From contig OY760136.1 in NCBI GenBank assembly GCA_963663195.1, positions 4,030,300 to 4,094,299 on the forward strand: DNA of 64,000 bases, in the 5' to 3' direction. Positions 4,144 to 55,892 of the stretch are shown in pieces. The position numbers and the translations under genes are program-made. Below the pieces are notes generated by a model. It was not told the DNA's origin and ran no database searches. It saw only the letters and a list, made by a program, of their open reading frames with translations. Within the stretch, counting starts at the first letter, position 1, and every line of letters begins with the position of its first letter. The DNA is from Vicinamibacterales bacterium (GTDB lineage: Bacteria > Acidobacteriota > Vicinamibacteria > Vicinamibacterales > UBA8438).

Positions 4144-5249
4144 GCGCTGAAACGCTCGTTCATCTCGTCCGCGTGGTCGCTCCACCATTCCCAGTCGTTC
4201 GACAGCACGCGGGCGGCGTTCTCGGGATACAGCGGCATGTGCGGATTCATGTCGATGCCGACCTCGGCGTGGCGCCCGATGAGCGGCAAGCCGGAGCGGC
4301 GGGCGGGGCTGTAGGCGATGTAGTGGCCGACCGCCGCCATCGACTCGGCGGTGGTCGCGAAACGGACGAGCGCCAGGGCCGCTTCGAGGTCCGGCGTTCC
4401 GGCGACGATCGCCAGGGGGCCGACATCGAGGATCTGGCCGTCCCAGACGATGACGAACGGCTGGGCCTCCAGCGCCTGTGCATTGAAGATGCGGCCGTTG
4501 TAGGCGGTGCTCATCACCACCTCCCCGTCGGCCAGCATCTGCGGGGGCTGCGCGCCGGCCTCCCACCAGACGACCTCGTCCTTGATGGTGCCGAGCTTGC
4601 GGAAGGCCCGGTCGACGCCCTCGGGCGTGTCGAGGGCGGCGTACACCCGGTCGAGCGGCACGCCGTCGGCGATCAGCGCGAATTCCAGGTTGGCGTGCGG
4701 CACGCGGCGCATGCCGCGCCGGCCCGGAAAGCGCTCCAGGTCGAAGAAGTCAGCCATCGTCGCCGGCGGCTCACCGGTAATCCGTTCGGGGTTGTAGGCA
4801 TAGACCGTGGAATAGAAGGTGACGCCCACGGCGCATTCGAACAGCGACCCCGGCAGGAAGTCTTCGAGCGCCGGCGCGCCGTCCGCGCCAGACGGCAGCA
4901 TGGCGAGGTCGATCCGTTCCAGGATGCCCTCGTCGCAGCCGCTCACCGCGTCGGCCGTCTCGAGATCGACGATGTCCCAGTGGACGTTGCCGGTCTCGAC
5001 CTGCGCCCGTACCTGCGCAAGGCCGCCGTTGTAGTCCTCCAGGCGGATCTCGATGCCGGTCTGCTCGGCGAACGGCTCCAGGTAGCCCTTGTCGATGGCT
5101 TGCGCATAGGAGCCGCCCCAGGAAACCACCGTCAGTGACTCGCGGCGCGGCCCGCCGCACCCGGCCGACGGCGCGGCCAGCATCACGAGGATGGACAGCA
5201 ACCCCGCGGAAGCCGCCAGCGTCAGCGCGCGTCCCCGCCGGCCGTTCAA
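4128..5249 (-). CDS. ABC transporter periplasmic substrate-binding protein (PotD/PotF-like), probable lipoprotein
   Basis: A TTG start at 5249 overlaps the ATPase stop (TTGA). The signal is ..LLSILVMLAAPSAGC, and the mature part (SWGGSYAQAIDKGYLEPFAEQTGIEI..) is typical of solute-binding proteins. The start codon is uncertain. Confidence 0.75.
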   Translation of the reverse strand: MNGRRGRALTLAASAGLLSILVMLAAPSAGCGGPRRESLTVVSWGGSYAQAIDKGYLEPFAEQTGIEIRLEDYNGGLAQVRAQVETGNVHWDIVDLETADAVSGCDEGILERIDLAMLPSGADGAPALEDFLPGSLFECAVGVTFYSTVYAYNPERITGEPPATMADFFDLERFPGRRGMRRVPHANLEFALIADGVPLDRVYAALDTPEGVDRAFRKLGTIKDEVVWWEAGAQPPQMLADGEVVMSTAYNGRIFNAQALEAQPFVIVWDGQILDVGPLAIVAGTPDLEAALALVRFATTAESMAAVGHYIAYSPARRSGLPLIGRHAEVGIDMNPHMPLYPENAARVLSNDWEWWSDHADEMNERFSAWLAR

Positions 5250-6370
5250 CGTGCGACCCCCTGTTCGTCCGCATCCAGCACGCGGCAATCGGTCGGCGTC
5301 CAGCCGATGCGTATGCGGTCGCCCTCGATCACGGCGCCGTGGCCCACCACGTTCGGAATCTTGACGATGAACTCCGAGCTGCCGCACACGTTGACGCGCA
5401 GGCGGAGATGGTCGCCGAGGAACGTCATGTCCTCGATCCTGGCCTCGAACTCGTTGGTGTACAACCCGGGCGCGGGCGCGACGGCCACCCGTTCCGGACG
5501 AATCGACAGCGTCGTGGCGTCGCCCGGGCCGCACGGCGCGACACGCAGCGCACGGACGGTCTCGCCCCCGACGTCGACCTCGCAGATCTCGTCGGCAATG
5601 TTGATGACGCGCCCGGCCAGGCGGTTGTTCTCACCGATGAAGCGCGCAACAAAAGAGCGCGCCGGCTCCTCGTACAACCCCTCCGGCGATGCGATCTGCT
5701 CGATGCGCCCGGCCTGGAACACCGCCACGCGGTCCGACATCACCAGCGCCTCCTGCTGGTCGTGGGTCACGTACAGCACTGTGACCCCGAGGTCGCGGTG
5801 GATGCGCCGGATCTCGTACTGCAGCTCCTCGCGCAGGCGCCGGTCGAGCGCCCCCAGCGGCTCGTCCATCAGCACCAGCTCCGGCTCGAACACCAGCGCG
5901 CGGGCTATCGCCACCCGCTGCTGCTGGCCGCCCGAGAGCTGTCCCGGCCGGCGCTGCTCCAGCCCCTCGAGCCGCACGAGCTGCAGGACGCGCCGCACCT
6001 GCTCGCGGCGGCGCTCGGGCGCGATCCCGCGCACCTCCAGCGGAAACGCCAGGTTCTCGCCCACGGTCATGTGCGGAAAGAGCGCGTAGTTCTGGAACAC
6101 CATGCCGATGCCCCGCCGCCGCGGCGGCACCTGCTGCACGGCGCGCCCGCCGATGCGGATGACGCCCGCGGTCGGCGTCTCGAAACCGGCCAGCATCATC
6201 AGGCAGGTGGTCTTGCCGGAGCCGGACGGCCCGAGCAGGGTCAGAAACTCGCCCTTGCGGATCTGCAGGTCGAGGTCGCGCACCACCAGCGTCCGCCCGT
6301 CGAACGTCTTGCTGACCCGTTCGAACTCGACGTACGCGGCGTTTCCGGTCGATTGGCTGTTCTGGTCCAT
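5246..6370 (-). CDS. ABC transporter ATP-binding protein (PotA-like)
   Basis: Walker A GPSGSGKT, signature LSGGQQQR and Walker B LVLMDEPL are all present, followed by a C-terminal TOBE-like regulatory domain. Confidence 0.95.
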   Translation of the reverse strand: MDQNSQSTGNAAYVEFERVSKTFDGRTLVVRDLDLQIRKGEFLTLLGPSGSGKTTCLMMLAGFETPTAGVIRIGGRAVQQVPPRRRGIGMVFQNYALFPHMTVGENLAFPLEVRGIAPERRREQVRRVLQLVRLEGLEQRRPGQLSGGQQQRVAIARALVFEPELVLMDEPLGALDRRLREELQYEIRRIHRDLGVTVLYVTHDQQEALVMSDRVAVFQAGRIEQIASPEGLYEEPARSFVARFIGENNRLAGRVINIADEICEVDVGGETVRALRVAPCGPGDATTLSIRPERVAVAPAPGLYTNEFEARIEDMTFLGDHLRLRVNVCGSSEFIVKIPNVVGHGAVIEGDRIRIGWTPTDCRVLDADEQGVAR

Positions 6371-7753
6371 CTATGGGTTTCCGTTTGCCGCGGAGGGTTC
6401 CGCAAATGCCGTTTTCAGCAGCGGCGGCGTCACGAGCGTCGTCAGCATGACCATGGCGACGATCGCGGAAAAGGTATTGTCGCTCAACACGGGAGTGCCG
6501 GCGACCAGGACCGTATGGCCGATGCTGGCGAAGATCAACCCCACCTCGCCGCGCGGAATCATGCCGATCCCGATGGCCCAGCGATTGAGGCCCCGCTTGA
6601 AGACGCCCAGCACGCAGGCCTGCTTGCTCACGACAGCCGCGACGCTCAAGAGGCCGGCGAAGACCACTACGTCGAGCGAGGCGAAGGACGCCATGTCGAC
6701 GCGCAGCCCCATGTAAACGAAGAATACAGGGACGAATATCGTGCCGATCGGTGCGATGGCGGCGTCTATCCTGTACCGTTCCCGCTGCTCGCCGAAGAAC
6801 CTCGTGATTTCCTCGCTGAGCACCAGCCCCGCGGCGAAGGCCCCCACGATGTCCGCCAGACCGATATAGTCCGCAAGCGCCGCCATCAGGAAGCAGTAGG
6901 CGACGCCCAGCACGGCCGGGGCCGACGGCGATCGCGCGTGCCGGACGAGCCGCATCAGCGGCAGGATGACGACCCGGCCGAACAGCAACGATCCGGCGAG
7001 GAAGCCCACGGCCTGCCCCACGATCAGAACTACGGGGCCAACGGCAAGCTCGAGCGCGCCGCCGGTATCGGCCGCGCCCACCAACCCGAGAATGATTGCC
7101 AGCACGATCAGGCCGAGGATGTCGTCCACGACGGCCGCGCCGAGAATAACCTTGGACTCCGGCGCATCCATCCTGCCGATATCGCGCAGCACGCGCGCCG
7201 TGATCCCGACGCTGGTCGCAGCGAGCGTCGCCCCGACGAACAGGTGGACATACCATGCGACGTCCGCGGGGAGGAAAGCGGAAGAAACGGCGTAGCCCAG
7301 CGCCACCGGCGCGACGACCCCCATCAACGCCACGCCGACGGCCGAGGATCCGACCCTCAGCAGTTCCTTGAGGTTGCAGTCGAGACCGACCTGGAACAGC
7401 AGCAGAATCACGCCGATTTCGGCTGCGATCGGCAGGAACGGATCGCTCTTCAGCGCATCGAAAATATCGATGCCGAATACGCCCAGGTTGCCCAGGACGA
7501 CCCCGACAAGCAGCTCGCCCAGCACCGCGGGCTGGCCGAGCCGCTCGACCAGCTCACCGGCGACCTTGGCGGCGATGAGGATGGCGGCGAACGACACCAG
7601 GAATGGAGCCATGTCGCCGCCGTGCGGCCCCTCCTGGGCGCCGGCCAGGCGCCAGGCGCCGAAGACGATGGCGGGAACCAGAAAGCCGCAGCGGCGAAGC
7701 AATCCGCGGTACTGCCGCGTGCGGTGCGGAAGGGCGGACTGCGGGCTTGTCAT
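6371..7753 (-). CDS. Cation:proton antiporter (CPA2 / Na_H_Exchanger family)
   Basis: Polytopic membrane protein with ..ILIAAKVAGELVERLGQPAVLGELLVGVVLGN.. The stop abuts the ATPase start. An alternative start at 7612 (MAPFLVSF) is equally plausible. Confidence 0.85.
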   Translation of the reverse strand: MTSPQSALPHRTRQYRGLLRRCGFLVPAIVFGAWRLAGAQEGPHGGDMAPFLVSFAAILIAAKVAGELVERLGQPAVLGELLVGVVLGNLGVFGIDIFDALKSDPFLPIAAEIGVILLLFQVGLDCNLKELLRVGSSAVGVALMGVVAPVALGYAVSSAFLPADVAWYVHLFVGATLAATSVGITARVLRDIGRMDAPESKVILGAAVVDDILGLIVLAIILGLVGAADTGGALELAVGPVVLIVGQAVGFLAGSLLFGRVVILPLMRLVRHARSPSAPAVLGVAYCFLMAALADYIGLADIVGAFAAGLVLSEEITRFFGEQRERYRIDAAIAPIGTIFVPVFFVYMGLRVDMASFASLDVVVFAGLLSVAAVVSKQACVLGVFKRGLNRWAIGIGMIPRGEVGLIFASIGHTVLVAGTPVLSDNTFSAIVAMVMLTTLVTPPLLKTAFAEPSAANGNP

Positions 7754-7927
7754 GCGGGCTTCTTGCTGGCGCCCGATCATCGGCAGCCGCCGCGGGCGTG
7801 TCAAGGCGGATCTGCATGCGCCGTTGCACATGGAATTGATTCCGCGGCGCGCCATGGAGGCGCGCTTCGCGGCGCCAGGGAGGGTATGGTAAGAGCTACT
7901 GTCAAAGGCGCGACCGAGAGGTGTGAC

Positions 7928-10120
7928 ATGAATCATCGAGCGCTTCGACTGCTGGGGACGGTTGCGGCCGTTATCGTCGCCGTCTCGCCCGTCCCGTCGC
8001 GCGCCGAGGCCCAACCGCGGGCGGCGGCGGAAGCGACGACACCGCGGACGCCCTGGGGCGATCCGGATCTGCAGGGGATCTGGAACAACGGCACCATCAC
8101 GCCGCTGGAGCGCCCGGCGGATCGGGCCGACCAGGCATTCCTGGACGCGGAGGAATTGGCCGCGGTCGAGCGGCAGGCCCGCGATCGCGTGGACCGGGAA
8201 AACGCGCCGAGCGCGCAAACCGGGCTGCTGCCGGTGGGCGGCAACGTCGGTGCATACAACAGCTACTGGACGGAGCAGAACACGTCGGTCGTCGGCACCA
8301 TGCGCACGTCGCTGATCACCGATCCCGCGGACGGCCGGCTGCCTGCCCTGACCCCGGAGGCCCTCGCCCGGATCACGTCACCGGAGTGGCGGCGGCTGGC
8401 CGACGTGCAGCAGGGGCGCGTCCCCGCCGACGGACCGGAGGAAATGGGACTGAGCGAGCGCTGCCTCTGGTACCGCGGAATCCCGTCGATCCCGACCGGA
8501 TACAACAACAACTACCACTTCCTGCAGATTCCCGGCGCCGTCGTGATTCTGCAGGAGCACATCCACGATCTGCGTCTCATCTTTCTGGACGAACGGCCGC
8601 ATCTCCCGGCGCGCATCCGTCAGTTCGCAGGCAGTTCGCGCGGGCACTGGGAGGGCGACACGCTCGTCGTCGAAACCACCAACCTGCGGGAACCGTTCAT
8701 CCGCCGCTGGGTCCGTCCGGAGCACTCCCTGTCACGAGGCAGACTCAGCGAGGCCGCGCGCGTGACCGAACGCTTCACGCGTATCGGCCCCGACACGCTC
8801 GACTACCAGTTCACCATCGACGACCCGGAGACGTGGACGCGGCCGTGGTCGGGCGCCCTGCCCTATACACGCACGGACGGACCGATGTTCGAGTTCGCGT
8901 GTCACGAAGGGAACTACGGGCTGCTGAACATCCTGGCCGGCTCGCGCGCGGAGGAGCGGGCCGAAAGGAGGCGGGAATCCGGATCCCTCACGGCCGGGTC
9001 GGCGGTCGCGCAGGCCGGGCAGCTCCCCGACGACGTTCACCCCGTAACGCGCAACCGCCTGCCGCCGATCGACCGCACGGAACTCGATGCCGAGCGGCGC
9101 GCGGCGTACGACGCGGCGGCGGCGAGCCCGTCCGGAGCGCCCACCGGCGCCGCGGCCCTGCGCCTGCACGGCTCGGGCACCCTCCTGCGGTGGGAGGCTC
9201 CGCTGGGACGACGCCTGATTGAGCTGACCATCCTGACCGCGGCGCGCGAGCTCGACCAACCGTTCGAATGGGCGCTGCACGAGATCGAGGCGATCGCCGT
9301 CGGGCTCGAGGACGAAATCATCGACATCGTTCGGCACCGTAAGCCGATTGCCGCGCTGCCTCCGCGCGAAGCGATCATCGTCGAGGTCGGCAGGGAGTTG
9401 TTCGGCACGCGCTCGCTGGCCGCCGACACCTACGCGCGGGCGCTGCGGCTGCTGGGCAAGACCAATCTCGTCGACGTCATCGACACGCTGGCCCGCTACG
9501 CCATGGTCGGGGCCGAGCTCACCGGGTTCAATCAGCGGATGCCCGCCGGCTGGCGGCAGTCTCTGCCGCTGCCGTTCACCCATCCGGACGACATCCATCC
9601 CGACTCGCGCAGCCGGCTGCCGCTAAGAAGCGCCGAGACCACGAGCACGGCGTCGGTGCTGTACGGGCGGTTGCTGTCGCCCTCCGGACTCGGTCCCAAC
9701 GCCATCCGGACCTACGGCGCGGGGCAGGAAACACTGGAAGGACGGGTGGGACGGCGGATCATGCAGCTGGCGATTCTGGTGACGGCAAGAGCGCACGACT
9801 CGCAGTACGAATGGACCCTCAACGAGTCGCCGTCCCGCGAGGCCGGCCTGGATGCGGAGCTGATCGACATCGTCCGTAACGGCCTGGCGCTGGACGGAGT
9901 CGACGAGAAGGACGCCGCCCTGATTGCGTTCGGCCGCGAGATGTTCGGCGACCACAATGTCAGCGCCGCGACCTACGCGCGCGCGGAGCGCGCGTTCGGC
10001 GTGCAGGATCTGGTGGACATCGTGCGCCTGATGGGCGAGCACGCGGCCGAAGCGATTGTGCTGCAGGGCTTCGACCAGCAATTGCCCGAGGGCGTCGAGC
10101 CGCTGCTTCCGCTGCGGTAG
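7928..10120 (+). CDS. Family paralogue P1: exported family domain fused to two tandem carboxymuconolactone decarboxylase (CMD/AhpD-like) domains
   Basis: ATG 7928 follows GAGAGG, inside the artefactual ORF 5135..10120. The protein has a signal peptide (MNHRALRLLGTVAAVIVAVSPVPSRAEA), then TPWGDPDLQGIWNN, TPLERP, RTSLITDPADGRLP, GHWEGDTLVVETTNL and FEFACHEGNYG. Two repeats of the CMD-type pattern follow (..RLIELTILTAARELDQPFEWALHE.. and ..RIMQLAILVTARAHDSQYEWTLNE..). Confidence 0.85.
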   Translation: MNHRALRLLGTVAAVIVAVSPVPSRAEAQPRAAAEATTPRTPWGDPDLQGIWNNGTITPLERPADRADQAFLDAEELAAVERQARDRVDRENAPSAQTGLLPVGGNVGAYNSYWTEQNTSVVGTMRTSLITDPADGRLPALTPEALARITSPEWRRLADVQQGRVPADGPEEMGLSERCLWYRGIPSIPTGYNNNYHFLQIPGAVVILQEHIHDLRLIFLDERPHLPARIRQFAGSSRGHWEGDTLVVETTNLREPFIRRWVRPEHSLSRGRLSEAARVTERFTRIGPDTLDYQFTIDDPETWTRPWSGALPYTRTDGPMFEFACHEGNYGLLNILAGSRAEERAERRRESGSLTAGSAVAQAGQLPDDVHPVTRNRLPPIDRTELDAERRAAYDAAAASPSGAPTGAAALRLHGSGTLLRWEAPLGRRLIELTILTAARELDQPFEWALHEIEAIAVGLEDEIIDIVRHRKPIAALPPREAIIVEVGRELFGTRSLAADTYARALRLLGKTNLVDVIDTLARYAMVGAELTGFNQRMPAGWRQSLPLPFTHPDDIHPDSRSRLPLRSAETTSTASVLYGRLLSPSGLGPNAIRTYGAGQETLEGRVGRRIMQLAILVTARAHDSQYEWTLNESPSREAGLDAELIDIVRNGLALDGVDEKDAALIAFGREMFGDHNVSAATYARAERAFGVQDLVDIVRLMGEHAAEAIVLQGFDQQLPEGVEPLLPLR

Positions 10121-10150
10121 TCGGACCGAGGAGAGGACCGGGAGGTGCGC

Positions 10151-11368
10151 ATGCGGGTTGGGTCTTCCGTTGTTTCCGCCGCGTCTGTGCTGCTATGCCT
10201 GGCCGCGCTCGGTTATGCGCAGGAGGAAGCGCCTATCGGCGTGCCGGTGCCGCCGCTCGGCGACGGCCCCTGGGTCATCGATACCGCTGAACAGCACAAG
10301 ACCCGGGTCAGCGTCGTGGCCAGGGGTCTGGAGAATCCCTGGGCCATCGCCTTCCTGCCGGACGGCGCCATGCTGGTCACCGAGCGATCGGGCCGCCTGC
10401 GCATCGTTCGCCGCGGCGCGCTCGACCCGCAACCCGTCTCCGGCGTGCCGCAGGTCCGGACCGACGGCAACGGGGGCCTCATGGACGTGGCCGTCCATCC
10501 CGAATTCGCTGACAACGGGCTGGTCTATCTCACTTACACGAGGCGGCACGACGACGGCCGCGGCGCGCCGGCGCTCGCGCGGGGACGGCTGGCGGGGCAC
10601 GCGCTCCATGACCTCGAAGACCTGGTCACGACCGAGCCCTTCCACTCCAACGCGGGACTCAACGGACGGGTCGCCTTCGGCCGCGACGGCAAGGTCTACA
10701 TGTCCACCGGGGGCCGCATCCTGTCCCCGGATGGCGATCTCCTCGACACGCCGCAGGATCCCGGCAGCCTGCGCGGCAAGGTGCTGCGCCTCAACGACGA
10801 CGGCTCCGCGCCGGACGACAACCCCTTCGTGAACGAGCCGGGCCATCGGCCGGAGATCTACACGATTGGGCATCGCAACACGCTCGGCCTCATGCTGCAC
10901 CCGGAGACCGGCGACATCTGGCAGCACGAGAACGGTCCCAACGGCGGCGACGAGCTGAACGTCCTCCTGCCGGGCCGCAACTACGGCTGGCCGCTGATGA
11001 GCTTCGGTCGTCTCTATCCCGGCGCGCGCGTATCCGAGCATCCGACGCGCGAGGGCTACGAGTCGCCGCTCGTCGTCTGGCTACCCGCCATCGCGGCCGC
11101 CGGCATGGCCGTATACACGGGCGATCGGTTCGCGGCGTGGAAGGGCAACCTGTTCGTCGGCTCCCTGCAGCAGGGCGGGATTCCGGGCACCGGACACCTG
11201 CAGCGCATCGTGTTCAACGAGAACATGGAGGAGCTGCGGCGCGAGACCATGCTGACGGAGCTGCGGCAACGCATCCGCGAAGTTCGCGAAGGACCCGACG
11301 GGTTGCTTTACCTGCTTACGGACCACGACGACGACGGCGCGCTGCTGCGTATCGAGCCCGCTCCGTGA
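10151..11368 (+). CDS. PQQ-dependent sugar dehydrogenase (soluble glucose/sorbosone dehydrogenase, YliI-like)
   Basis: Signal peptide followed by motifs ..LENPWAIAFLPDG.., ..GKVLRLNDDGSAPDDNPF.., ..IYTIGHRNTLG.. and ..GGDELNVLLPGRNYGWP.. ATG 10151 follows GGGAGG; the track's GTG at 10145 is an alternative start. Confidence 0.85.
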   Translation: MRVGSSVVSAASVLLCLAALGYAQEEAPIGVPVPPLGDGPWVIDTAEQHKTRVSVVARGLENPWAIAFLPDGAMLVTERSGRLRIVRRGALDPQPVSGVPQVRTDGNGGLMDVAVHPEFADNGLVYLTYTRRHDDGRGAPALARGRLAGHALHDLEDLVTTEPFHSNAGLNGRVAFGRDGKVYMSTGGRILSPDGDLLDTPQDPGSLRGKVLRLNDDGSAPDDNPFVNEPGHRPEIYTIGHRNTLGLMLHPETGDIWQHENGPNGGDELNVLLPGRNYGWPLMSFGRLYPGARVSEHPTREGYESPLVVWLPAIAAAGMAVYTGDRFAAWKGNLFVGSLQQGGIPGTGHLQRIVFNENMEELRRETMLTELRQRIREVREGPDGLLYLLTDHDDDGALLRIEPAP

Positions 11369-11403
11369 GCCCTGCGCGCGACGCACCCGCGATTCCGCAC
11401 GCC

Positions 11404-12177
11404 ATGCGCGTCGTGAGCTGGAACGTCAACGGCTTGCGCGCTTGCGCGCGAAAGGGGTTCCTGCAGTTTCTGGCGGTCTCCGGCGCCGACATCATCGGCC
11501 TGCAGGAAGTGCGCGCGTTCGAGCACCAGCTGGATCCGGAGGTGCGGACGCCGCCCGGCTGGCATACCACGTTTGCGCCCGCCGAGCGGCCCGGCTACAG
11601 CGGCGTGGCCATCTACTCGCGCCAGCCGCCCACCAGCGTGGAATCGTCGCTGGGCGAGCCGCGTTTCGACACCGAGGGACGGATTCTCATCGCCCGATTC
11701 GAGCGGTTGACGGTGGCGTCAGTCTACTTTCCCAAGGGCAGCGGCCGGGATCGCGACAACAGCCGCGTGCCCTACAAGCTGGACTTCTACGCCGCGGTCT
11801 TCGACCGCCTGCAGCGGCTCCGGCGCCGCGGGCCGGTGCTGGTCATCGGCGACTACAACACCGCGCACGAGCCGATCGACCTGGCGCGTCCCGCGTCCAA
11901 TGCGAAGACCAGCGGCTTCCTCCCCGAGGAACGCGCCGAAATGTCGCGCTGGCTGCAGGCCGGCTGGGTGGACACCTTTCGCGCCCGCCACGCCGGCGAG
12001 CCGGGCCACTACAGCTGGTGGCGGCAGTGGGGCGGGGCGCGCGAACGGAACATAGGCTGGCGGATCGACTACGTGCTCGCCTCGCCCGCGGCGGCCCGGC
12101 GCGTTCGGGACGCCTTCATATGGCCGGAAGCAACCGGCTCCGACCACTGCCCCGTCGGCGTCGACCTGGCGTTGTGA
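11404..12177 (+). CDS. xth: Exodeoxyribonuclease III
   Basis: MRVVSWNVNGLRA..GLQE..DYNTAHEPIDL..WRIDYVLAS..GSDHCPV matches the canonical EEP/Xth motifs. The true start lies inside the longer ORF 11137..12177. Confidence 0.9.
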   Translation: MRVVSWNVNGLRACARKGFLQFLAVSGADIIGLQEVRAFEHQLDPEVRTPPGWHTTFAPAERPGYSGVAIYSRQPPTSVESSLGEPRFDTEGRILIARFERLTVASVYFPKGSGRDRDNSRVPYKLDFYAAVFDRLQRLRRRGPVLVIGDYNTAHEPIDLARPASNAKTSGFLPEERAEMSRWLQAGWVDTFRARHAGEPGHYSWWRQWGGARERNIGWRIDYVLASPAAARRVRDAFIWPEATGSDHCPVGVDLAL

Positions 12178-12247
12178 ATGGCGGGCGCGCGCCGCGGGCG
12201 GCAGGTGTAGAATCGGGACTTTCCCGTCCCGTTACCGAAGGAGGACC

Positions 12248-13513
12248 ATGGCTCGCCACCTGGCCCGCATTTCTCACCAGCCTTCTGCTGCGGCCGCCGA
12301 TCCGCGCGCTGTGGCGGGCCGTACTCCCTCACGCCGCTTCGACGTAGTTACGACTACGCCTGCAGCGGCATCTGCTAGATGGGGCTGCGCCCCAAACCCC
12401 CGGCGGCTGCTTGCGGGGTCCCCTTCGCCCCGCGCCGCTGCCGCCGGGCCGCGCCGTGCGCGGCTGTCGTTCGATCCGTCCCGGCGCCTCGACGCCCTCG
12501 CGACGAACGCTGGTGAGAAATGCGGGCTGGCTCTGCTCGGCGCGTTGTTGATGCTTCCGGTGGGGTTGCACGCGCAATCCGGCGCGGCGGGGCAGCGCAC
12601 CCCGTGGGGCGACCCCGATCTGCAGGCGGTCTGGACCAGCTCCACGCTCACGCCGCTCGAACGGCCGGCCGGGATGGCCGGCAAGGCGGCGCTCAGCGAG
12701 GAGGAAGCCGCGGCGTCCACGGCGCTCGAGTTGCGGCGCATCGACGGCGACCAGCGCGCGGGAACGGGCCGCGGAGACCGCCAGACCGACACGCCCGACG
12801 GGCGCACCGACGTCGGCCGCGCCTACAACGAATTCTGGCGCGAGCGGGGCCGCATGCTCCGGCAGACCTCGCTGATCGTTGATCCGCCGGACGGGCGCAT
12901 CCCGTACAAGCCGGGCGCGCGCCCCACGGAGTCGCCCTATCACGGCGGCGTGGGCGAGTTCCCGGCCGGCCCGGAAACCCGCGGCCTCGCCGAGCGCTGC
13001 ATCGCCTGGGGCAGCGCCGGACCGCCGATGCAGCCGACGACCTACAACAGCAACTTCCAGCTGCTCCAGACGCCGGACCACGTGGCGATCGTCAACGAGA
13101 TGATCCACGACGTGCGCATCGTGCCGCTGGACGGGCGGCCGCACGTCCGTGCCGGCATTCGCCAGCTGCTGGGCGACTCCCGAGGACGCTGGGAAGGCGA
13201 TACGCTGGTCGTCACGACAGCGAACTTCACGGACAAGACGCGCTTCGCGGGGTCCGGCGCGGGACTCGACCTGGTTGAGCGCTTCACCCGCGTCGACGAC
13301 GACACGCTGCTGTACGAGTACACCGTGCGGGACGATTCCGCTTGGGCGCAGCCCTGGACCGCCTCATGGCCGCTCAGCACGCTGCAGTCGGCGATCGGCT
13401 CGGAACCCGGCAGCGCAGGCGCGCACCTGTTCGAATATGCCTGCCATGAGGGCAACTACGGAATGACCAACCTGCTGGCGGGTGCGCGCGCCCTCGAACC
13501 GGCGCGAGACTGA
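12248..13513 (+). CDS. Family paralogue P2, with a MITE-like element inserted in frame in the signal-peptide coding region
   Basis: AGGAGG lies 3 nt upstream of ATG 12248. Codons 6-94 are repeat-derived. The rest reads [79 protein letters not shown]. It is unclear whether the product is still exported. Confidence 0.7.
   Translation: MARHLARISHQPSAAAADPRAVAGRTPSRRFDVVTTTPAAASARWGCAPNPRRLLAGSPSPRAAAAGPRRARLSFDPSRRLDALATNAGEKCGLALLGALLMLPVGLHAQSGAAGQRTPWGDPDLQAVWTSSTLTPLERPAGMAGKAALSEEEAAASTALELRRIDGDQRAGTGRGDRQTDTPDGRTDVGRAYNEFWRERGRMLRQTSLIVDPPDGRIPYKPGARPTESPYHGGVGEFPAGPETRGLAERCIAWGSAGPPMQPTTYNSNFQLLQTPDHVAIVNEMIHDVRIVPLDGRPHVRAGIRQLLGDSRGRWEGDTLVVTTANFTDKTRFAGSGAGLDLVERFTRVDDDTLLYEYTVRDDSAWAQPWTASWPLSTLQSAIGSEPGSAGAHLFEYACHEGNYGMTNLLAGARALEPARD
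12264..12526. mobile_element. MITE-like repeat, copy A (full composite: long arm + structured central module + short arm)
   Basis: An 18-bp perfect terminal inverted repeat is present (CCCGCATTTCTCACCAGC at 12264-12281, GCTGGTGAGAAATGCGGG at 12509-12526). It is flanked by a direct CTGG (12260-12263 and 12527-12530). The arms match copies B and C in inverted orientation. Confidence 0.8.
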
Positions 13514-13536: not shown

Positions 13537-15225
13537 TCAGTCGCGCAGGGCGAAGGTCGTGAGGACGTGGCCGGAGATGACGGCGACGTACTGCTTGCCG
13601 TCCACCTCGTAGGTCATCGGGCCGTTCACGATGTGGCTGCCCAGGCTGGCCTTCCACAGCAGGTCCCCGCTGCGGGCGTCGAGCGCCTGGAAATAGCCTG
13701 ATCGGGCGCCGGTGAACAGCAGGTCCGAGGCGGTCGCCAGGATGCCGCTGCGGATGACGTCCGTCATCTCGAACTTCCACTTCTGCTCGCCGGTCAGCGC
13801 GTCCAGCGCCAGCACGGCGCCCCTGCCGGCGGCCTCGGTCCAGTCGTTGATGGGACCGCGGGACAGGCCCGGCGGGATCGGCGCATCGGGCACCGGTTGG
13901 TACGTTCGCGGAAAGTCCATGTTGCGCCCCACGAACGCGCGGCCCGGGACGTACACCTGCGGCGCGCCGTCGAAGACCGTCGCGTAATCCTCCCAGGTGG
14001 CGACGTAGAACAGCTCAGTCCGCGGGCTGAAGGCCGGCGAATTCCAGTTGGTCGCACCGGCTATCCCCGGATAGGTCGGCGCACCGGGAGGCTGCGGCGT
14101 CTCGACCGGACGCCCGCTGTCGTCCAGGCCCTCCGCCCAGTTCAGCGATGTGAACGGCACGCCGCTCAGGAAGCGGCCCGTCGCCCGGTCCAGCACGTAG
14201 TAGAACCCGTTGCGGTTCGCCCACAGCATCACCTTGAACAGGTTGCCGCCGCGCTCGATGTCCGCCAGTACCGGGATCTGCACCGCGTCGTAGTCGTACA
14301 GGTCGTCCGGTGTGAACTGGAAGTGCCAACGGATCTCGCCGGTGTCCGCGTCGAGCGCCACGACCGAGCAACTGTAGAGGTTGTCGCCCGGCCGCTGCGC
14401 CCGGTTGTAGTCCGGACCGGGGTTGCCGATGCCCCAGTACGTCAGGTTCAGCTGCGGGTCGTACGAACCGGTCAACCAGGCGGCCGCGCCGCCGTGCTTC
14501 CACGCCTCCGGGTCGCAGTACGTCTCGGGATTCGGCGGGCACGCCTCCCACGTCTCGTGGCCGGGCTCACCGGGACCCGGAATCGTATGGAAGCGCCAGG
14601 CCTCTTCGCCCGTCTCGGCGTCCAGCGCCGCGATGAATCCGCGGATGCCCTGGTCACCGCCGGTCGAGCCGACCAGCACCTTGTCCTTGATGGCCAGCGG
14701 CGCCAGCGTGAAGGCGTACGCCAGGTTCTTGTCTGCCATCTCCACGTCCCACAACTCGGCGCCGGTCGCCGCGTCGAGCGCAACGACGTGCGCGTCGAGC
14801 GTGGCCATGAACACGCGCTCGCCGAGCACCGCCACGCCGCGGTTGTTCGCCCCGCAGCAGGCCCGGTGGTCCGAGGGCGTCGGATAGTTGTAGACCCAGT
14901 AGACGCGCCCGGTCCTGGCGTCGAGCGCGACGATGTCGTTGGGCCGCTGTGTCAGGTACATCACGCCGTCGACGACGATTGGTGAAGCCTGCCACGTTCC
15001 GGCCACCGACGTCTGGTACACCCACTCCAGCGCGAGGTCGCCGACGTTGGCCGGCGTGATCTGCTCGAGCGCGCTGTAGCGCTGGCTGAAGTAGCCGCCC
15101 GAATAGGTCAGCCAGTTCTGCGGCTCGTCGGCCGCTCGGACCAGGCGGTCGGAGGATACCTGCGCGGACAGGCCGGCAGAGAGCAGCGCACCCATCGCCA
15201 CGGCCCACAGCGCGCGCCGGAGCAT
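13537..15225 (-). CDS. PQQ-dependent dehydrogenase (methanol/ethanol-family 8-bladed propeller), paralogue 1
   Basis: The start MLRRALWAV is at 15225, inside ORF 13537..15735. After a signal peptide come NWLTYSGGYFSQRYSALEQITPANV, the vicinal ACCGANNRGVA, YDYDAVQIPVL and the W-repeat structure. It is about 80% identical by eye to the 30449..32143 product. Confidence 0.88.
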   Translation of the reverse strand: MLRRALWAVAMGALLSAGLSAQVSSDRLVRAADEPQNWLTYSGGYFSQRYSALEQITPANVGDLALEWVYQTSVAGTWQASPIVVDGVMYLTQRPNDIVALDARTGRVYWVYNYPTPSDHRACCGANNRGVAVLGERVFMATLDAHVVALDAATGAELWDVEMADKNLAYAFTLAPLAIKDKVLVGSTGGDQGIRGFIAALDAETGEEAWRFHTIPGPGEPGHETWEACPPNPETYCDPEAWKHGGAAAWLTGSYDPQLNLTYWGIGNPGPDYNRAQRPGDNLYSCSVVALDADTGEIRWHFQFTPDDLYDYDAVQIPVLADIERGGNLFKVMLWANRNGFYYVLDRATGRFLSGVPFTSLNWAEGLDDSGRPVETPQPPGAPTYPGIAGATNWNSPAFSPRTELFYVATWEDYATVFDGAPQVYVPGRAFVGRNMDFPRTYQPVPDAPIPPGLSRGPINDWTEAAGRGAVLALDALTGEQKWKFEMTDVIRSGILATASDLLFTGARSGYFQALDARSGDLLWKASLGSHIVNGPMTYEVDGKQYVAVISGHVLTTFALRD

Positions 15226-15227
15226 TG

Positions 15228-16301
15228 CTAACGAACCTTCGCCGCGGCGGCCTCTGCCGCCATCCGCTCGAGGTTGCGATTGATCTCGAGGATGTGCCGG
15301 ATGTCGTGGTTGCCCTCGTGGCAGCCGTATTCGAACATCGGCCCCTCGGTCTTGATCATCGGCACCTCGGCGCTCCAGGAGCTGGTCCAGGTGGTCGGAT
15401 CGGAGATCGTGAACTCGTAGTGGATCTGGGTCTCGCCGACGCGGCTGAACCGTTCCACCACGTGCCGGAACCCGGAGGACCCGCGGTAGCTGCGCTTGTC
15501 GACGTCGACGAAGTTCTTCGATTCGACGACCAGGGTGTCGCCGTCCCAATAACCGCGCGAGGCGCCGCCGTACTGCGGCACACCCCCCGGGAGGTGCGGG
15601 CGTCCGTCGAGCGGAATGATTCGCGGCAGGGTAGTACCGAGCTCCGTGAACACGACGACGTAGTCCGAAGTCTGGAAAATCTGATGGATGTCGTTGTAAG
15701 ACGGCGGCAGGATCGGCGGCCCTTCGTGCCGCCACGCGATGCAGCGTTCGGGCAACGGGCGCGTCTCGTGGCTGTCGAATACGCTGCGCATGGCCTGTTC
15801 GTGGGCAATGCGGGCCGCGCCGGCCGGCGTCAGCGGCGGAATCCGGCCATTGGGCGGATCCGTGATCAGCGACGTGCGCCGGGTCGACAACCCCTTGGGC
15901 ACCTCAGTGCGGAGCCAGACCGTATTGTCGTAGTGCACGTACGACGGGTCGCGGTTGACCTGGTACAGGCCCCGCTCCCGCTCCTCCGCGTCCTCCAGGA
16001 TCGCGGCGTCGCGCGCCAGCGGATCGACCCCGTCGGCTGTGAGCTGCGCCTGCAGCTCCGCGAACTCCTCTTCCGAATAGAACGCCTTGTCTCCCAGGTA
16101 GGCGGGGCGTTCGATCGGCGTGAACGTCTGGGTGGTCCAGTACCCCTGGAGATCCGGATGACCGTCCGGCGTGCGCGGCAACGTCCAGTCCGCGGCCTCG
16201 TCCGCGGCGTGCTCGCCCACAGCCTGCGCGGCAGCCGACAAGGGCGCCGACAACCCGACCGCAACGATCGCCGCCAGTGCGGCGAGAGTAGAGCGGCTCA
16301 T
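15228..16301 (-). CDS. Family paralogue P3 (TPDGHPDLQGYW subtype), co-transcribed with a PQQ dehydrogenase
   Basis: GAGGAGGAG lies upstream of ATG 16301. After a signal peptide come PRTPDGHPDLQGYWTT, FTPIERP, RTSLITDPPNGRIPP, ERC, IIPLDGRPHLP, GYWDGDTLVVESKNF and FEYGCHEGNH. The stop is 2 nt from the start of the PQQ-DH gene. Confidence 0.9.
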   Translation of the reverse strand: MSRSTLAALAAIVAVGLSAPLSAAAQAVGEHAADEAADWTLPRTPDGHPDLQGYWTTQTFTPIERPAYLGDKAFYSEEEFAELQAQLTADGVDPLARDAAILEDAEERERGLYQVNRDPSYVHYDNTVWLRTEVPKGLSTRRTSLITDPPNGRIPPLTPAGAARIAHEQAMRSVFDSHETRPLPERCIAWRHEGPPILPPSYNDIHQIFQTSDYVVVFTELGTTLPRIIPLDGRPHLPGGVPQYGGASRGYWDGDTLVVESKNFVDVDKRSYRGSSGFRHVVERFSRVGETQIHYEFTISDPTTWTSSWSAEVPMIKTEGPMFEYGCHEGNHDIRHILEINRNLERMAAEAAAAKVR

Positions 16302-16516: not shown

Positions 16517-19500
16517 TTAGAAGTCGAGCTGAGCCGCGAACCTCAATAGCCGAGGCGGCATGAACCCGAGGGGGCTCAAGTAGCTGGCCTGGGCGTACGA
16601 CTCGCTGAAGACGGCGTTGTTGTTGAACACGTTATAGATGTCGATCATCGCCCGTATGCGGGCTCGGCCGGCCTGGAAGATCTTCGTGAACCGCAGGTCG
16701 AACTGGTTGAAGCGCTCCCCGTAAACCGTTCCTGGCTCCAGGGCGTTGATGGTCACCGCGTCTCCGGAGGCCGGCGGCCTGCCGAGCGCCGCCGCGATCT
16801 CCGCCGACGTGACGGTGACGAGAGCCTGCCGTTCCGGGCCGGGAGCCGACTGGAGCGTGGCGGCGACCTGGATGTCGTACGGCAGGGTGTACGACCCGAG
16901 CAACTTGATCTGCGTCAGCCAGGCGGTTGATGAATCGCAGAACTCCTGCGCGAGCGTGTCGGTGCCGCGCACCAGATCTCCCCGGCGGGAGAGATGCTCC
17001 GGCGCAGCGGCATACGGGCCGCAGTAGTCGTATGACGTCGTCCCGGTGGACAGCCCGCCCTGGAGGGTCAGCTCATCCAGCCGTGCGTTGAGCGTGACGT
17101 CGACGCCGTTGAACACCTGCTCTTCGCCGCCGAAATGATTCGCCGACGTGAACAGGACATCGGGCTGGCGGCCGAACGCCTCTGGCCTGATCTCGGGGAA
17201 GGTGACCGTCCCGACGCCGGGAATGCCCCGGCCGCTCAGATCCACGGTGGCCAGGTCATAATCGCTACCTGACAGCGCCCGGTCGTCCTGTAGCGCGAAG
17301 TTGACGAAGTTGCGGCGGAACCAGGTCACGTCGAGCGCCATGCCGGCGGTCAGCTCCTGCTGTATCCCGGCGGTCACTTCCCAGTTGGAGAAGCGCTGGC
17401 CATATCCGCTCGCCCAGTCGGGGTCGAGGAATTGGAACGGCGCGGTGCCGCCCCAGGCCGCGTTGGCGATTGGGAAGATCAGCTCTCCGTTCGGGGCGGG
17501 GTTGGCCGGGTCGCCCTGCACGAAGCCGTCGCCGGCGATACACTCGACCGGCCCGATACAGGACGGGAAGACGGGTGGAATGCCGGCGAAGCGATGGCCG
17601 GGCGCCCCGTCGAGCCACACCCTGTCGTTTGCGCGGGCCGGGACAGCCGAGAACGGGTTCAGCAGGACCGCCCACTCGGAGTTCGACCGCGTGCCGTAGC
17701 GGTTGGCCGACGCCTTGAGCGCCGTCCGCCCGTCGCCAAACACGTCGTACGCCACCCCCAGCCGTGGCTGCAGGTCGTTCCAGGCCACGATATCCGAGAC
17801 GCCGGAGATCGACTGACCTTGCGGCTCCCAGGTCGACGCGGCGCGAGTCTGGTCCGGATACGAGTTTGTGAGCCGGTCGAGGCGGAGGCCGGCGTTGACG
17901 GTAACCTGGCCGAGCGTTATCTGGTCCTGCGCGTAGATTCCGTAGGCGATGCCCTCGTTGGTCGAATCGTGTGGCAGCCAGAAGCCTGCCTGCAGCGGGA
18001 GCCCAAGAATGGCAAGCGCGTTGGTGAAGTTCTGGTTGCTGAAGGTTTGGAACCTCTCGGAGGTCCGCGTGCCGCTAAACCCCACCTTCAGGTTGTGGGT
18101 GCCGGTCACGTAGGTCATGCTGCCGCGGAAGGAGTGGGTCGCCCGCCAGCTGTCGTATCCACTCCCCTGCGATATGAAGTGGTTGTTGCGGTGAATCGTC
18201 AGCGTGCTGGCCTCCAGAAGCCCGAGCACGTCGTTGGCGGCATGCTCGTTGGGACCGGCGTCGAACTGGGCCGGGGAGCTCGAGAAACCCGCCTCGAACA
18301 GCAGGCGGTCGGTCGCCGGCCGGACCCAGTTGAACTGGGTCGTATGGAGTCTGTAGTCCCCACTGACGGAGCCTTCCGGCGCGATGAACAAGCCGAAGAG
18401 CGGCCCCGCCAGGGCATTCGGCTTTTCCCAGTCGGCGTAGTTGTAGAAGAACTTGAACTTGTCCTTCCGGGTCGCCTGGATCGTCAGGTTGAGAGTCGTG
18501 TCCTTGGAACCATTGATACTGGCCACAGGCTGGGTCGGGTCGGGCGTGTAAACGCTTGCTGCCGGGTCCACGGCCGCGAACACATTGGGAGTGAAGCTGT
18601 CGGCTACCTGCTGCGTGAACTGCGCGTAGAACCAGACGCGGTCCCTGACGATCGGGCCGCCGACCGCCGGATTGTACAACCATGCCCTGTCGAGCTCCGC
18701 GAAGTTCGAGGCGCCGGGCACCTCGTTCGTCCCCTGCAGCCCGGGGCCGGTGCCGCTCGCGAAAAAGGCTCCGCTGAACTGGTTGGCTCCCTCTCGAGGG
18801 ACCAGGTTCACGCCGACGCCGCCCAACGCCGCCTCGGCGCCGTGCCCGGAGACCTCGACTGACATCTCCTCCATTGCGCCGTCCGAGACCGTGCCGAACA
18901 TCTGCCCGGCGCCCCCGGAGAAGGCGTTGCTGACGTCCATGCCGTTGATGTTCGTTTGCCCGTCCTTCGGGCGGCTGCCGTGGATGTCGAGGGCCGCTAC
19001 GGTCTGGACCGTGGTGCCGCCCGCGTCCTGGTTGAGGCTCGTGCCGAACGCCGAAGAGGAGCTCATCCCGGGCACCAGCAGCGCGTAGCTCTGATGCGAC
19101 TTGCCTGTCGGGATCTCGTCGATGACCTCCCGATCGATGAGCGCCCGCTGCAAGGTGTTCTGGATGTCCACAACCGGGCTCGCGCCGGATACCGTCACCG
19201 TCTCCGCGATGTCGCCGACCGAGAGCTGCACGTCGATGCTCGCCGTGAAGCCGGTGGTGAGCTCGATGCCCTCGCGGACCAGCGTGGTGAACCCGGGCAG
19301 CGTGTAGGTGACCGAGTAGGTGCCCGGCTCGAGGGCCACGATGAGGTACTGCCCGCTGCCGTCGGTTACGGCCGTGCGCACCTGCTCGATGATGTCCGGG
19401 CTGCGCGCCTCCACGGTCACGCCGGGCAGCACGCCGCCGGTCGTGTCGCTAACTGTGCCGCCGATCTGCTGGGCGCTGGCCACGCCGGCGCCCAAAAGAA

Positions 19501-51452: not shown

Positions 51453-51475
51453 CTCAACCTCCAACATCTCTACTC

Positions 51476-55845: not shown

Positions 55846-55892
55846 TAGCGACGTTTCTCGTGATACAAGTCAGGCGATTTCAGGAGGCATTG

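Follow-up and report, generated by a model that had tools for sequence, protein, structure and literature searches.

AhpD is among the closest described relatives of the protein studied here. In Mycobacterium tuberculosis, AhpD catalysis requires Glu118, Cys130, (His132), Cys133 and His137; Cys130, Cys133 and His137 are essential, and the CxxC motif is invariant in the AhpD family (PMC3141380). We have analysed a 64,000-nt stretch of DNA from a Vicinamibacterales bacterium (Acidobacteriota; GenBank assembly GCA_963663195.1, contig OY760136.1, positions 4,030,300 to 4,094,299 of the forward strand), referred to below as the window. It encodes P1, a 730-residue protein with a predicted signal peptide, an N-terminal domain (A, a copy of what we call the CHEGNY family) and a C-terminal half (B) made of two tandem units related to AhpD and to the carboxymuconolactone decarboxylase (CMD) family. 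We find that P1 is likely to be a very recent fusion of two neighbouring exported genes, and that B has the AhpD-like fold but is not an AhpD.

The AhpD structures (M. tuberculosis 1GU9; Pseudomonas aeruginosa PA0269, 2O4D/2IJC) and the AhpD-core structures 2OYO, 2PRR, 3C1L, 2GMY and 6K40 share an all-helical fold with B, and unit 1 of B keeps the helix-hairpin with the relay Glu and His at identical spacing. B differs from AhpD in that both catalytic cysteines are replaced, the protein is exported, there are two units per chain, unit 2 lacks the relay residues, and no AhpC partner is encoded near B. In TTHA0727 of Thermus thermophilus, a hexameric CMD-family member of unknown function, the essential cysteine is substituted and peroxidase activity is considered to be absent (PMC3141380). 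B is also a CMD-family protein with the essential cysteine substituted, but it is a secreted tandem pseudo-dimer with a Gln/Glu substitution pattern. TTHA0727 itself is presumably a single-domain, cytoplasmic protein.

With PcaC (4-carboxymuconolactone decarboxylase, EC 4.1.1.44), B has the Pfam family PF02627 in common. PcaC carries a Glu four residues before the His (E-L-x-x-H) in place of the second cysteine, comparable with E447-W-A-L-H451 in unit 1. Unlike PcaC, B has no NCBIfam match, has no beta-ketoadipate genes among the scanned neighbours, and is exported. The active site of PcaC is itself undefined (PMC3141380). A report on human Sestrin2 describes a single chain with two similar, pseudo-symmetric globular subdomains that differ in function (PMC4674687). 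Sestrin2 can serve as an architectural analogue of the division of labour that we propose between units 1 and 2 of B. Sestrin2 is eukaryotic and cytosolic; its subdomains are AhpD-like, and the catalytic Cys is kept in one half.

An architecture like that of P1 occurs in Bryobacteraceae (P0019, P0027 and P0028, the last being HLG97000.1; about 506-527 residues; P numbers denote proteins of the cluster collection that we searched). These proteins also consist of a signal peptide, A, a short linker and a B-type unit with the F-E-W-x-x-H-E motif, and over 70-75% of the length of P1 they share 37-40% identity with it. The database label of HLG97000.1 is 'carboxymuconolactone decarboxylase family protein'. 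They differ from P1 in having a single CMD unit, an evolved short linker and not a signal-peptide relic, and a genomic context without an adjacent operon for GSDH, the glucose/sorbosone dehydrogenase encoded downstream of P1. As this fusion is conserved over many clusters, it is an old one. For A, the nearest structural likeness is to the calycins (FABP/CRBP, SAHS, streptavidin and lipocalins), whose barrel the predicted antiparallel barrel of A resembles weakly (Foldseek E-values of 1e-3 to 1e-2). At 9-16% identity there is no sequence similarity, and A has an extra, highly conserved N-terminal part of about 150 residues, a conserved Cys pair and the CHEGNY loop.

Results

P1 is likely to be a recent in-frame fusion

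The features of P1 are as follows; L numbers denote related loci.

7928-10120, + strand: P1, fused A-B open reading frame (ORF), 730 codons plus stop, from the ORF translation; the exact sequence is recorded as P0431
7928-8011, + strand: predicted Sec-type signal peptide of A, residues 1-28, by inspection; sole remaining export signal of the fusion
8042-8977, + strand: domain A (CHEGNY family), residues 39-350, from alignment conservation, AlphaFold2 (AF2) and Foldseek
8900-8917, + strand: CHEGNY motif, C325-Y330, the family signature, partly in a loop (328-332) of low predicted local confidence (pLDDT)
8957-8977, + strand: last codons of the ancestral gene A (RAERRRE), with the orphaned Shine-Dalgarno sequence AGGAGG of B, from the junctions of the window, L003, L004, L006 and L085
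8978-8979, + strand: deletion junction, 38 nt missing, from DNA alignment and the gap listing against L085
8978-9016, + strand: relic of the signal-peptide c-region of B, SGSLTAGSAVAQA, now the inter-domain linker, by comparison with P0412 and P0121/P0122
9017-9586, + strand: CMD/AhpD-fold unit 1, residues 364-553, with the probable (predicted) active or binding site; Pfam match at residues 420-478, conservation and 2gmy alignment
9587-10117, + strand: CMD/AhpD-fold unit 2, residues 554-730, degenerate at the relay positions

Searching with B alone gave 1462 relatives. The closest of these, 87-93% identical at full coverage, are all 393-residue proteins consisting of the 369 residues of B and a 24-residue signal peptide (e.g. 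MRRWRRTAVVLLWAGSITAGSAVAHA/GQLPDD, the slash marking the cleavage site). In L003 and L004, A (350 residues) and B (393 residues) are adjacent, separate genes that overlap by 4 nt (ATGA), with B in the -1 frame relative to A. In a DNA alignment with these relatives, a clean gap of exactly 38 nt opens in the window at the ATGA overlap. It takes away the stop codon of A (TGA), the start codon of B (ATG) and 13 codons at the beginning of the B signal peptide (its n/h-region). Because 38 is 3n+2, the -1 offset is cancelled and B falls into the frame of A. The AGGAGG upstream of the lost ATG is kept in the window and now encodes part of ERRRE, and the 13 residues SGSLTAGSAVAQA are the leftover c-region of the B signal peptide (compare MRRWMRTAVALVW-AGSLTAGSAVAHA/GQLPDD in P0412). 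No ATG, GTG or TTG is left between the end of A and mature B. We therefore rejected independent translation of B inside P1, its start codon being gone; a microhomology-mediated deletion was also rejected, as no direct repeat flanks the 38 nt. The junction k-mers are GGCGGGAATCCGGATCC for the fused and GGCGGGAATGAG for the unfused allele.

The nearest loci, L085-87, lie on three independent short-read metagenome contigs and are 95.2-95.6% identical to positions 5794-12382 of the window. They are collinear with it and unfused. The only indels are 6 and 3 nt in intergenic DNA and the 38-nt site, which is the sole coding indel over 6.4 kb between the window and L085. The nearest B, P0412, is located on L085-87 and has most of the substitutions that separate the B of the window from those of L003 and L006. 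A and B are separate in L003, L004, L006, L085-87 and other cluster members.

The exact P1 sequence was found in the cluster collection as P0431, on one contig of 4,558,230 bp, and had no match in the gene-position index. Its cluster at 90% identity has 68 members, 40 of which were read; P1 is the only 730-residue protein among these, and the others listed are A (350/354 residues) or B (393 residues), on many contigs. Fused P1 links the two unrelated families, and one cluster thus holds both. This cluster, that of P0121, has a 393-residue B as its representative and contains P1 and A proteins. Searching with full-length P1 did not bring up P0121 and the other nearest B clusters (87-93% identical), which had been retrieved with B alone. 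The exact downstream GSDH, taken with its start at 10145, matched nothing in the gene-position index or the cluster collection, probably because of a start-codon difference. Neither the fused-junction 27-mer nor a flanking 24-mer common to both alleles had a match in the JGI metagenomes; as both are absent, the lineage itself is absent there and this test is uninformative.

Relatives carry two further deletion products at this locus. In L002 (3086-5266; P0005), A is fused in frame directly to GSDH and B is deleted. This A-GSDH fusion is present in at least five distinct sequences or contigs (P0005, P0421, P0424, P0429 and P0430), and its linker is a relic of the signal-peptide c-region of the downstream protein (AAAAAQEQPP). 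In the second type (P0422, P0425 and P0426; 428 residues; contigs of up to 3.9 Mb), the A signal peptide, 81% identical over residues 1-21, is followed by a PAGGNV fragment and then by the last residues of A and a complete GSDH (94% identical). Nearly the entire A domain is deleted, and the signal peptide of A is retained to export GSDH. As read from these alignments, deletions that spare the leading signal peptide are recurrent at this locus.

Taken together, the sequence comparisons indicate that P1 is a very recent in-frame fusion of neighbouring exported genes, made by a 38-nt deletion, and we consider it likely that the allele is real. It would be a strain- or species-level event, with assembly error the less likely explanation. 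The ancestral state was co-directional A and B genes with an ATGA overlap, an arrangement kept in every relative examined, in which B had its own Shine-Dalgarno sequence within the last codons of A and its own Sec signal peptide. The comparisons show the 38-nt deletion to have produced the order signal peptide of A, A, relic linker, B unit 1, B unit 2. As a consequence, B would now be synthesised solely as the C-terminal portion of an A protein and exported through the signal peptide of A, and two translationally coupled partners would have become a tethered 1:1 pair in the periplasm.

Anatomy and export of P1

The first-pass annotation of this DNA, made from the sequence alone, had described P1 as a single ORF of about 730 codons with a signal peptide, a complete family domain in its first 350 or so residues, and two repeated units, and our analysis agrees with it on all four points. 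The reading frame has no internal stops. GC content at third codon positions (0.85 and 0.88 for the first and second halves, respectively) matches that of the genuine genes of the window (65-71% GC). The N-terminus, MNHRALR-LLGTVAAVIVAV-SPVPSRAEA/QP, shows the tripartite (n/h/c) organisation of a Sec signal peptide: a positive n-region (R4, R7), a 12-residue hydrophobic core (LLGTVAAVIVAV, mean Kyte-Doolittle hydropathy about 2.6) and a predicted cleavage site at A26-E-A28/Q, that is, after residue 28. This signal peptide was judged by hydropathy and by inspection of these regions only. The same N-terminus is common to orthologues of P1, and AF2 places a low-confidence helix at residues 4-18. 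Domain A (residues ~39-350) is a complete copy of its family, starting at PRTPWGDPDLQG and ending in FEFACHEGNYGLLNILAGSRAEE. The two C-terminal units, each of about 180 residues, are homologous (38% identical over 181 residues, BLASTP E 3e-36, far beyond chance). P1 has only two cysteines, C179 and C325, both in domain A; residues 351-730 contain none.

Very long spurious open frames are common in the window, owing to its GC content of about 69%. P1 itself sits within a meaningless open frame of 1661 codons (5135-10120, + strand), which runs antisense through an ABC ATPase gene and the Na/H exchanger gene and then into P1. At such a GC content, a stop-free stretch is weak evidence for coding or for fusion in this genome.

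B is a cysteine-free tandem CMD/AhpD-fold protein

Whole P1 scores 24.4 bits with PF02627 (CMD) and its C-terminal half alone 29.6 bits (E 6.9e-07), both above the gathering threshold of 23 bits. The model is matched by 41 of 44 relatives, at best with E 2e-12. Unit 2 alone, although homologous to unit 1, scores 12.7 bits and so falls below the threshold. The AF2 model of the B half is all-helical, with the two units packed together (pLDDT 88; predicted template modelling score 0.90). Its first 29 Foldseek hits in the Protein Data Bank (PDB) are all AhpD/CMD structures (probability 0.94-1.0), among them PA0269, 2OYO, 3C1L, 2PRR, 2GMY, the AhpD proteins of Deinococcus radiodurans and Streptococcus pneumoniae, and Bmp8. 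The earlier description of a tandem CMD/AhpD-like pair is confirmed. A phmmer search of this half against the PDB sequences gave chance matches only, and P1 matches no NCBIfam model, PcaC included, at E<=0.1.

We aligned a B-family profile with the PDB. The match to 2gmy (E 0.28), used solely for residue correspondence, places the CxxC of 2gmy at S-Q-Y-D/E. The catalytic residues of M. tuberculosis AhpD correspond as follows.

AhpD Glu118: E432 in unit 1, Q613 in unit 2
AhpD Cys130: Q444 in unit 1, S625 in unit 2
AhpD Cys133: E447 in unit 1, E628 in unit 2
AhpD His137: H451 in unit 1, N632 in unit 2

The CxxC motif is therefore replaced by Q444-P-F-E447 in unit 1 and by S625-Q-Y-E628 in unit 2. 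In unit 1 the relay Glu and His keep the spacing of AhpD (E432 lies 12 residues before 444, and H451 four residues after E447), and both are invariant over 83 family members. Also invariant in this set are H414, S416, R421, R428, R440-E441, W448, E452, R469, R471 and R489-E490. Unit 2 lacks both relay residues (Q613, N632). Lacking any cysteine, B does not qualify as a thiol peroxidase of the AhpD type, and the peroxide or thiol chemistry at which the first-pass annotation had hinted is excluded in its usual definition. B belongs to the CMD Pfam family and is AhpD-like in fold, without being an AhpD.

Unit 2 is probably the structural partner in a pseudo-dimer. Together with the role suggested for A below, we tentatively propose a pseudo-heterodimer for B, with a (predicted) functional pocket in unit 1 only. 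B would then be a non-thiol acid-base enzyme of the decarboxylase, isomerase or tautomerase type. Alternatively, it would bind a small polar organic molecule; in either case it would act in the periplasm and not as a peroxidase.

The annotation had also remarked on the export of the CMD pair, CMD-family proteins being normally cytoplasmic. This export does not come from the fusion: standalone B with its own signal peptide is found in hundreds of Vicinamibacterales clusters. A twin-arginine (Tat) signal was considered for standalone B and rejected, as the N-termini (MRRWRRTAVV, MRRWERMAVV, MKMTRWVRAAVV) lack a consistent twin-arginine consensus. In the literature on exported CMD proteins or on the B family in Vicinamibacteria, we found context papers only.

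Domain A belongs to a large family with many partners

Eight ORFs of the window, P1 included, have a C[HN]EGN motif. The seven other A paralogues are standalone proteins of about 320-390 residues.

~12545-13513, + strand
55860-56834, + strand
~62021-63064, + strand
15228-16301, - strand
21452-22513, - strand
45069-~46247, - strand
50475-51467, - strand

Neither domain A alone (E<=10) nor 55 members of the family (E<=1) gave a consistent Pfam family, and no NCBIfam model matches A; single, weak Pfam matches to MLTR_LBD and K_channel_TID were dismissed as chance. A profile search of 1.84 billion representatives nevertheless found 29,988 A clusters (at 50% identity) at E<=1e-3, of which 18,363 reach E<=1e-10. 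Standalone proteins of 310-380 residues make up nearly all of the best 150 representatives.

The AF2 model of A (pLDDT 81) has a well-predicted N-terminal helical/extended part and an 8-stranded beta-barrel (residues ~195-315). C179 is invariant and C325 nearly invariant in the family, which suggests that a C179-C325 disulfide ties the CHEGNY loop to the ERC helix.

Fusion partners of A lie on both sides of it: cytochrome c, GDSL, amidohydrolase, ankyrin, esterase and NHL domains upstream, and VOC, M28, lipocalin, PEBP and GSDH domains downstream. Tandem forms (A-A, and A-A followed by leucine-rich repeats) also occur; P0012 (635 residues) and P0022 (862 residues) are A-A tandems, one of them with C-terminal leucine-rich repeats. 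In all, at least 12 unrelated domain types occur as partners of A. Fusions of A with cytochrome c (P0044 type, 507 residues) are common in relatives.

In the window, A paralogues adjoin genes for TonB-dependent receptors, pyrroloquinoline quinone (PQQ) dehydrogenases, a phosphotriesterase-family protein and an esterase. One apparent operon (19495-13537, - strand) runs from a TonB-dependent-receptor-like gene (CarboxypepD_reg and outer-membrane barrel, 16517-19495) through an A gene (15228-16301) to a PQQ beta-propeller dehydrogenase gene (13537-15225), which begins just 2 nt beyond the A gene. Next to another A paralogue are an esterase-like gene and a second PQQ dehydrogenase gene (24394-26346). 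Divergent from the gene for this 650-residue dehydrogenase lies one for a 471-residue protein with a weak cytochrome c match (26616-28031, + strand), a possible electron acceptor.

Such varied neighbours and partners are easier to reconcile with a binding or adaptor role than with an enzyme of one chemistry. A is most likely a ligand-binding or adaptor module, though the roles of A and B taken jointly are, as said above, a tentative proposal. Such a module would tolerate, and repeatedly acquire, fusion to diverse periplasmic proteins.

Genomic context of B

The genes flanking P1 are listed below.

6371-7750, - strand: divergent upstream Na+/H+ exchanger gene (Pfam PF00999, E 9.2e-55), the 5' limit of the P1 transcription unit
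10145-11368, + strand: exported PQQ-type GSDH, the downstream gene (Pfam PF07995, E 4.4e-115)
11365-12177, + strand: xth-like (Exo_endo_phos) gene, with a 4-nt overlap at the GSDH stop; synteny with L001, L003, L004 and L085-87

The order in the window is thus Na/H exchanger gene (- strand), P1, GSDH (25 nt downstream), the xth-like gene and another A paralogue. The start of the xth-like gene overlaps the GSDH stop (11365-11368) and is syntenic in L001, L003, L004 and L085-87, so that a presumably cytoplasmic DNA-repair-type nuclease is apparently co-transcribed with exported enzymes.

All 80 loci with B retrieved from GTDB genomes belong to metagenome-assembled genomes of Vicinamibacterales or other Acidobacteriota. 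By direct tblastn over 82 loci, GSDH lies downstream of B on the same strand in 49 and is its conserved neighbour. A gene for three tandem RidA domains (3xRidA) lies upstream of B in about 23 of the 82 and is fused to B in at least four; P0002 and P0004 are such 3xRidA-B proteins (about 765 residues, with signal peptide). P0011 is B fused to VOC/glyoxalase domains. In many Vicinamibacterales the exported triple-RidA protein (PF01042) is either fused to the N-terminus of the CMD pair or encoded separately upstream, and GSDH follows. Three RidA domains, two CMD units and GSDH make up a conserved periplasmic cassette (P0002, P0004, P0006-P0009; L015, L025, L036, L043 and others).

No AhpC or peroxiredoxin was seen in Pfam scans of the flanking genes or in the syntenic loci, and the scanned neighbours included no beta-ketoadipate pathway genes (pcaB/D/G/H etc.). 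As part of the same tentative proposal, B would work with the PQQ-type GSDH that adjoins it in most Vicinamibacterales. Lanthanide binding has been reported for six-bladed PQQ enzymes of Acidobacteria (bioRxiv 10.64898/2026.07.10.737718). Vicinamibacteria encode the PQQ importer PqqU, and PqqU-encoding Acidobacteria lack PQQ biosynthesis genes (PMC12124388). CMD or RidA partners are mentioned in neither of these two reports.

Discussion

Several points weigh against the interpretation given above. The fused allele is found in one assembly only, which leaves some room for assembly error, although we think this unlikely. The dN/dS ratio (non-synonymous over synonymous substitution rate) of B is 0.27-0.30 in comparisons with the window and 0.17-0.19 among unfused relatives, which could reflect relaxed constraint after the fusion. 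The adjacency of A and B is limited to one small clade: A lies directly upstream of B in three of about 80 GTDB species loci, the closest ones, and always as a separate gene. A specific functional coupling of A and B is not proven, as A has many partners and its best 150 representatives are nearly all standalone. The Foldseek matches of B have weak E-values (0.07-0.5) and template modelling scores of at most 0.73 on the target (2GMY). For the barrel of A the best match to calycin/FABP-like structures has E 1.1e-3, with target- and query-normalised scores of 0.5 and 0.2, again weak, and the Pfam profile searches with 55 members gave the calycin assignment no sequence support. Finally, we know of no member of A, or of this B subfamily, with an established biochemical function.

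Is the deletion real, and does it matter to the cell? The true genome might hold two overlapping genes, the gap having come from assembly (probably of long reads) or from polishing. A single contig with the fused allele, relatives that are all unfused down to 95.6% DNA identity, related genomes that are UUID-named, chromosome-scale metagenome assemblies typical of long-read work, and the lack of independent support from the JGI metagenomes would all agree with this. However, the usual long-read error is an indel of 1-2 nt in a homopolymer and not a clean 38-nt deletion. The gap is also the only coding indel in 6.4 kb against L085, and other genes of the window match the lengths of their cluster relatives exactly (562, 357 and 650 residues). 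Moreover, the other in-frame deletion products at the same locus, on several contigs from relatives, indicate that such deletions truly occur there. We therefore consider an artefact unlikely. The first-pass annotation had named two genes split by a frameshift as a way in which its reading could fail. Frame continuity does come from an indel here, but no in-frame stop is present. A real deletion might still be a neutral or mildly deleterious strain mutation heading for loss, with a misfolded fusion or an inactive B. The confinement of the fusion to one genome with unfused nearest relatives, the slightly higher dN/dS of B in comparisons with the window, and a linker that is an accidental signal-peptide relic and not an evolved one would be expected on this account. 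Against it, the B part is free of stops and frameshifts, none of the 80-plus family-invariant residues is altered, and the excess of window-specific amino-acid changes in B (12, against 7 specific to the sister) is not significant. With a dN/dS of 0.27-0.30 against relatives and every family-invariant residue in place, B is still constrained in the window. In addition, A tolerates C-terminal fusions in many lineages, including the established A+CMD architecture, and tethering is a mild change because the partners were already exported and co-translated. We regard a neutral or harmful allele as possible, though we would not expect it. A real allele is the reading that we prefer.

What does the fusion say about function? 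The annotation had taken it as a Rosetta-stone clue to the chemistry of the CHEGNY family. A and B do exist as separate proteins elsewhere, and this part of the argument stands; what weakens it is that the P1-type fusion arose by a 38-nt deletion found in one assembly and that A has many unrelated partners. A search for the same architecture in the databases brought out independent A+CMD fusions and the exact fusion in one assembly only. In Bryobacteraceae, A is fused to a single B-type CMD unit (about 510 residues, about 25 clusters) that matches unit 1 of P1 at E 1e-31 and unit 2 at E 1e-36; in P0059, A is fused to two different AhpD-like units containing a Cys. A+CMD fusions thus recur independently, but both A (at least 12 domains) and B (3xRidA, VOC) fuse elsewhere too. 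Because A is fused to so many unrelated exported domains, its CMD partner cannot define its chemistry. The fusion is partly a functional clue and a weak Rosetta stone. A stronger claim would be that A and B are a dedicated two-component system, with A binding or delivering the substrate of B. Such a partnership would explain both the gene overlap in this clade, with its ATGA and internal Shine-Dalgarno sequence, and the older, conserved Bryobacteraceae fusion, and P0059 would be a further case. But about 75 of the 80 species loci have no A upstream of B and carry a 3xRidA gene or another gene there, at least 12 unrelated domain types are fused to A, and the Bryobacteraceae fusions have no partner context in common with the P1 locus. 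With A so expanded (eight copies in 64 kb, some 30,000 clusters), chance adjacency is likely. A dedicated pair is therefore doubtful.

An exported AhpD-like thiol peroxidase or thiol-redox module, implying peroxide or thiol chemistry for the CHEGNY family, is very improbable. It is true that the fold is that of the AhpD/CMD superfamily, that some database relatives are labelled 'alkylhydroperoxidase family enzyme' at their source and that the AhpD-like units of P0059 contain a Cys. However, B is entirely without cysteine, unit 1 has Q..E and unit 2 has S..E where AhpD carries its CxxC, and scans of the neighbouring genes showed no AhpC or peroxiredoxin gene. Cys130, Cys133 and His137 are essential in AhpD, and the Cys-to-Ser relative TTHA0727 is considered to lack peroxidase activity (PMC3141380). 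The suggestion of a small-molecule ligand, also made in the annotation, fares better: it is compatible with the weakly calycin/FABP-like barrel of A, but is unproven. A bolder extension, which we offer as a long shot, is that A acts as an all-purpose ligand-capture or adaptor module in the periplasm of Acidobacteriota and passes small molecules imported through TonB-dependent receptors to the enzymes encoded beside it or fused to it. Its enzyme partners would include PQQ dehydrogenases, GSDH, hydrolases, cytochromes c and the cysteine-less CMD pair. B would then be a new non-thiol enzyme of the CMD superfamily acting on products or substrates of the adjacent PQQ-dependent six-bladed dehydrogenase, which is possibly lanthanide-dependent, and P1 would show the A-B complex. 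If this were true, P1 would be a natural tethering experiment, caught just after the event.

In sum, the P1 fusion by itself does not settle the function of A or B; it is a modest clue and not a new kind of protein. The novelty lies in the exported, tandem, cysteine-less CMD subfamily and in the unmodelled A family, and not in the fusion itself. The CHEGNY domain, which forms about 30,000 clusters at the 50% identity level and has no Pfam model, behaves as a promiscuous fusion module. The cysteine-free tandem CMD/AhpD-fold family is widespread and exported in Vicinamibacterales, and its annotation as alkylhydroperoxidase or carboxymuconolactone decarboxylase is unsuitable. Gene order connects this family to PQQ-type GSDH and to exported triple-RidA proteins. 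The likely history of P1 documents the birth of a multidomain exported protein: a short deletion across an ATGA overlap would have made one ORF, with the signal-peptide c-region of the downstream gene reused as a linker and export left to the upstream signal peptide. The A-GSDH proteins and the GSDH proteins led by the signal peptide of A add two further deletion products at the same locus in relatives.

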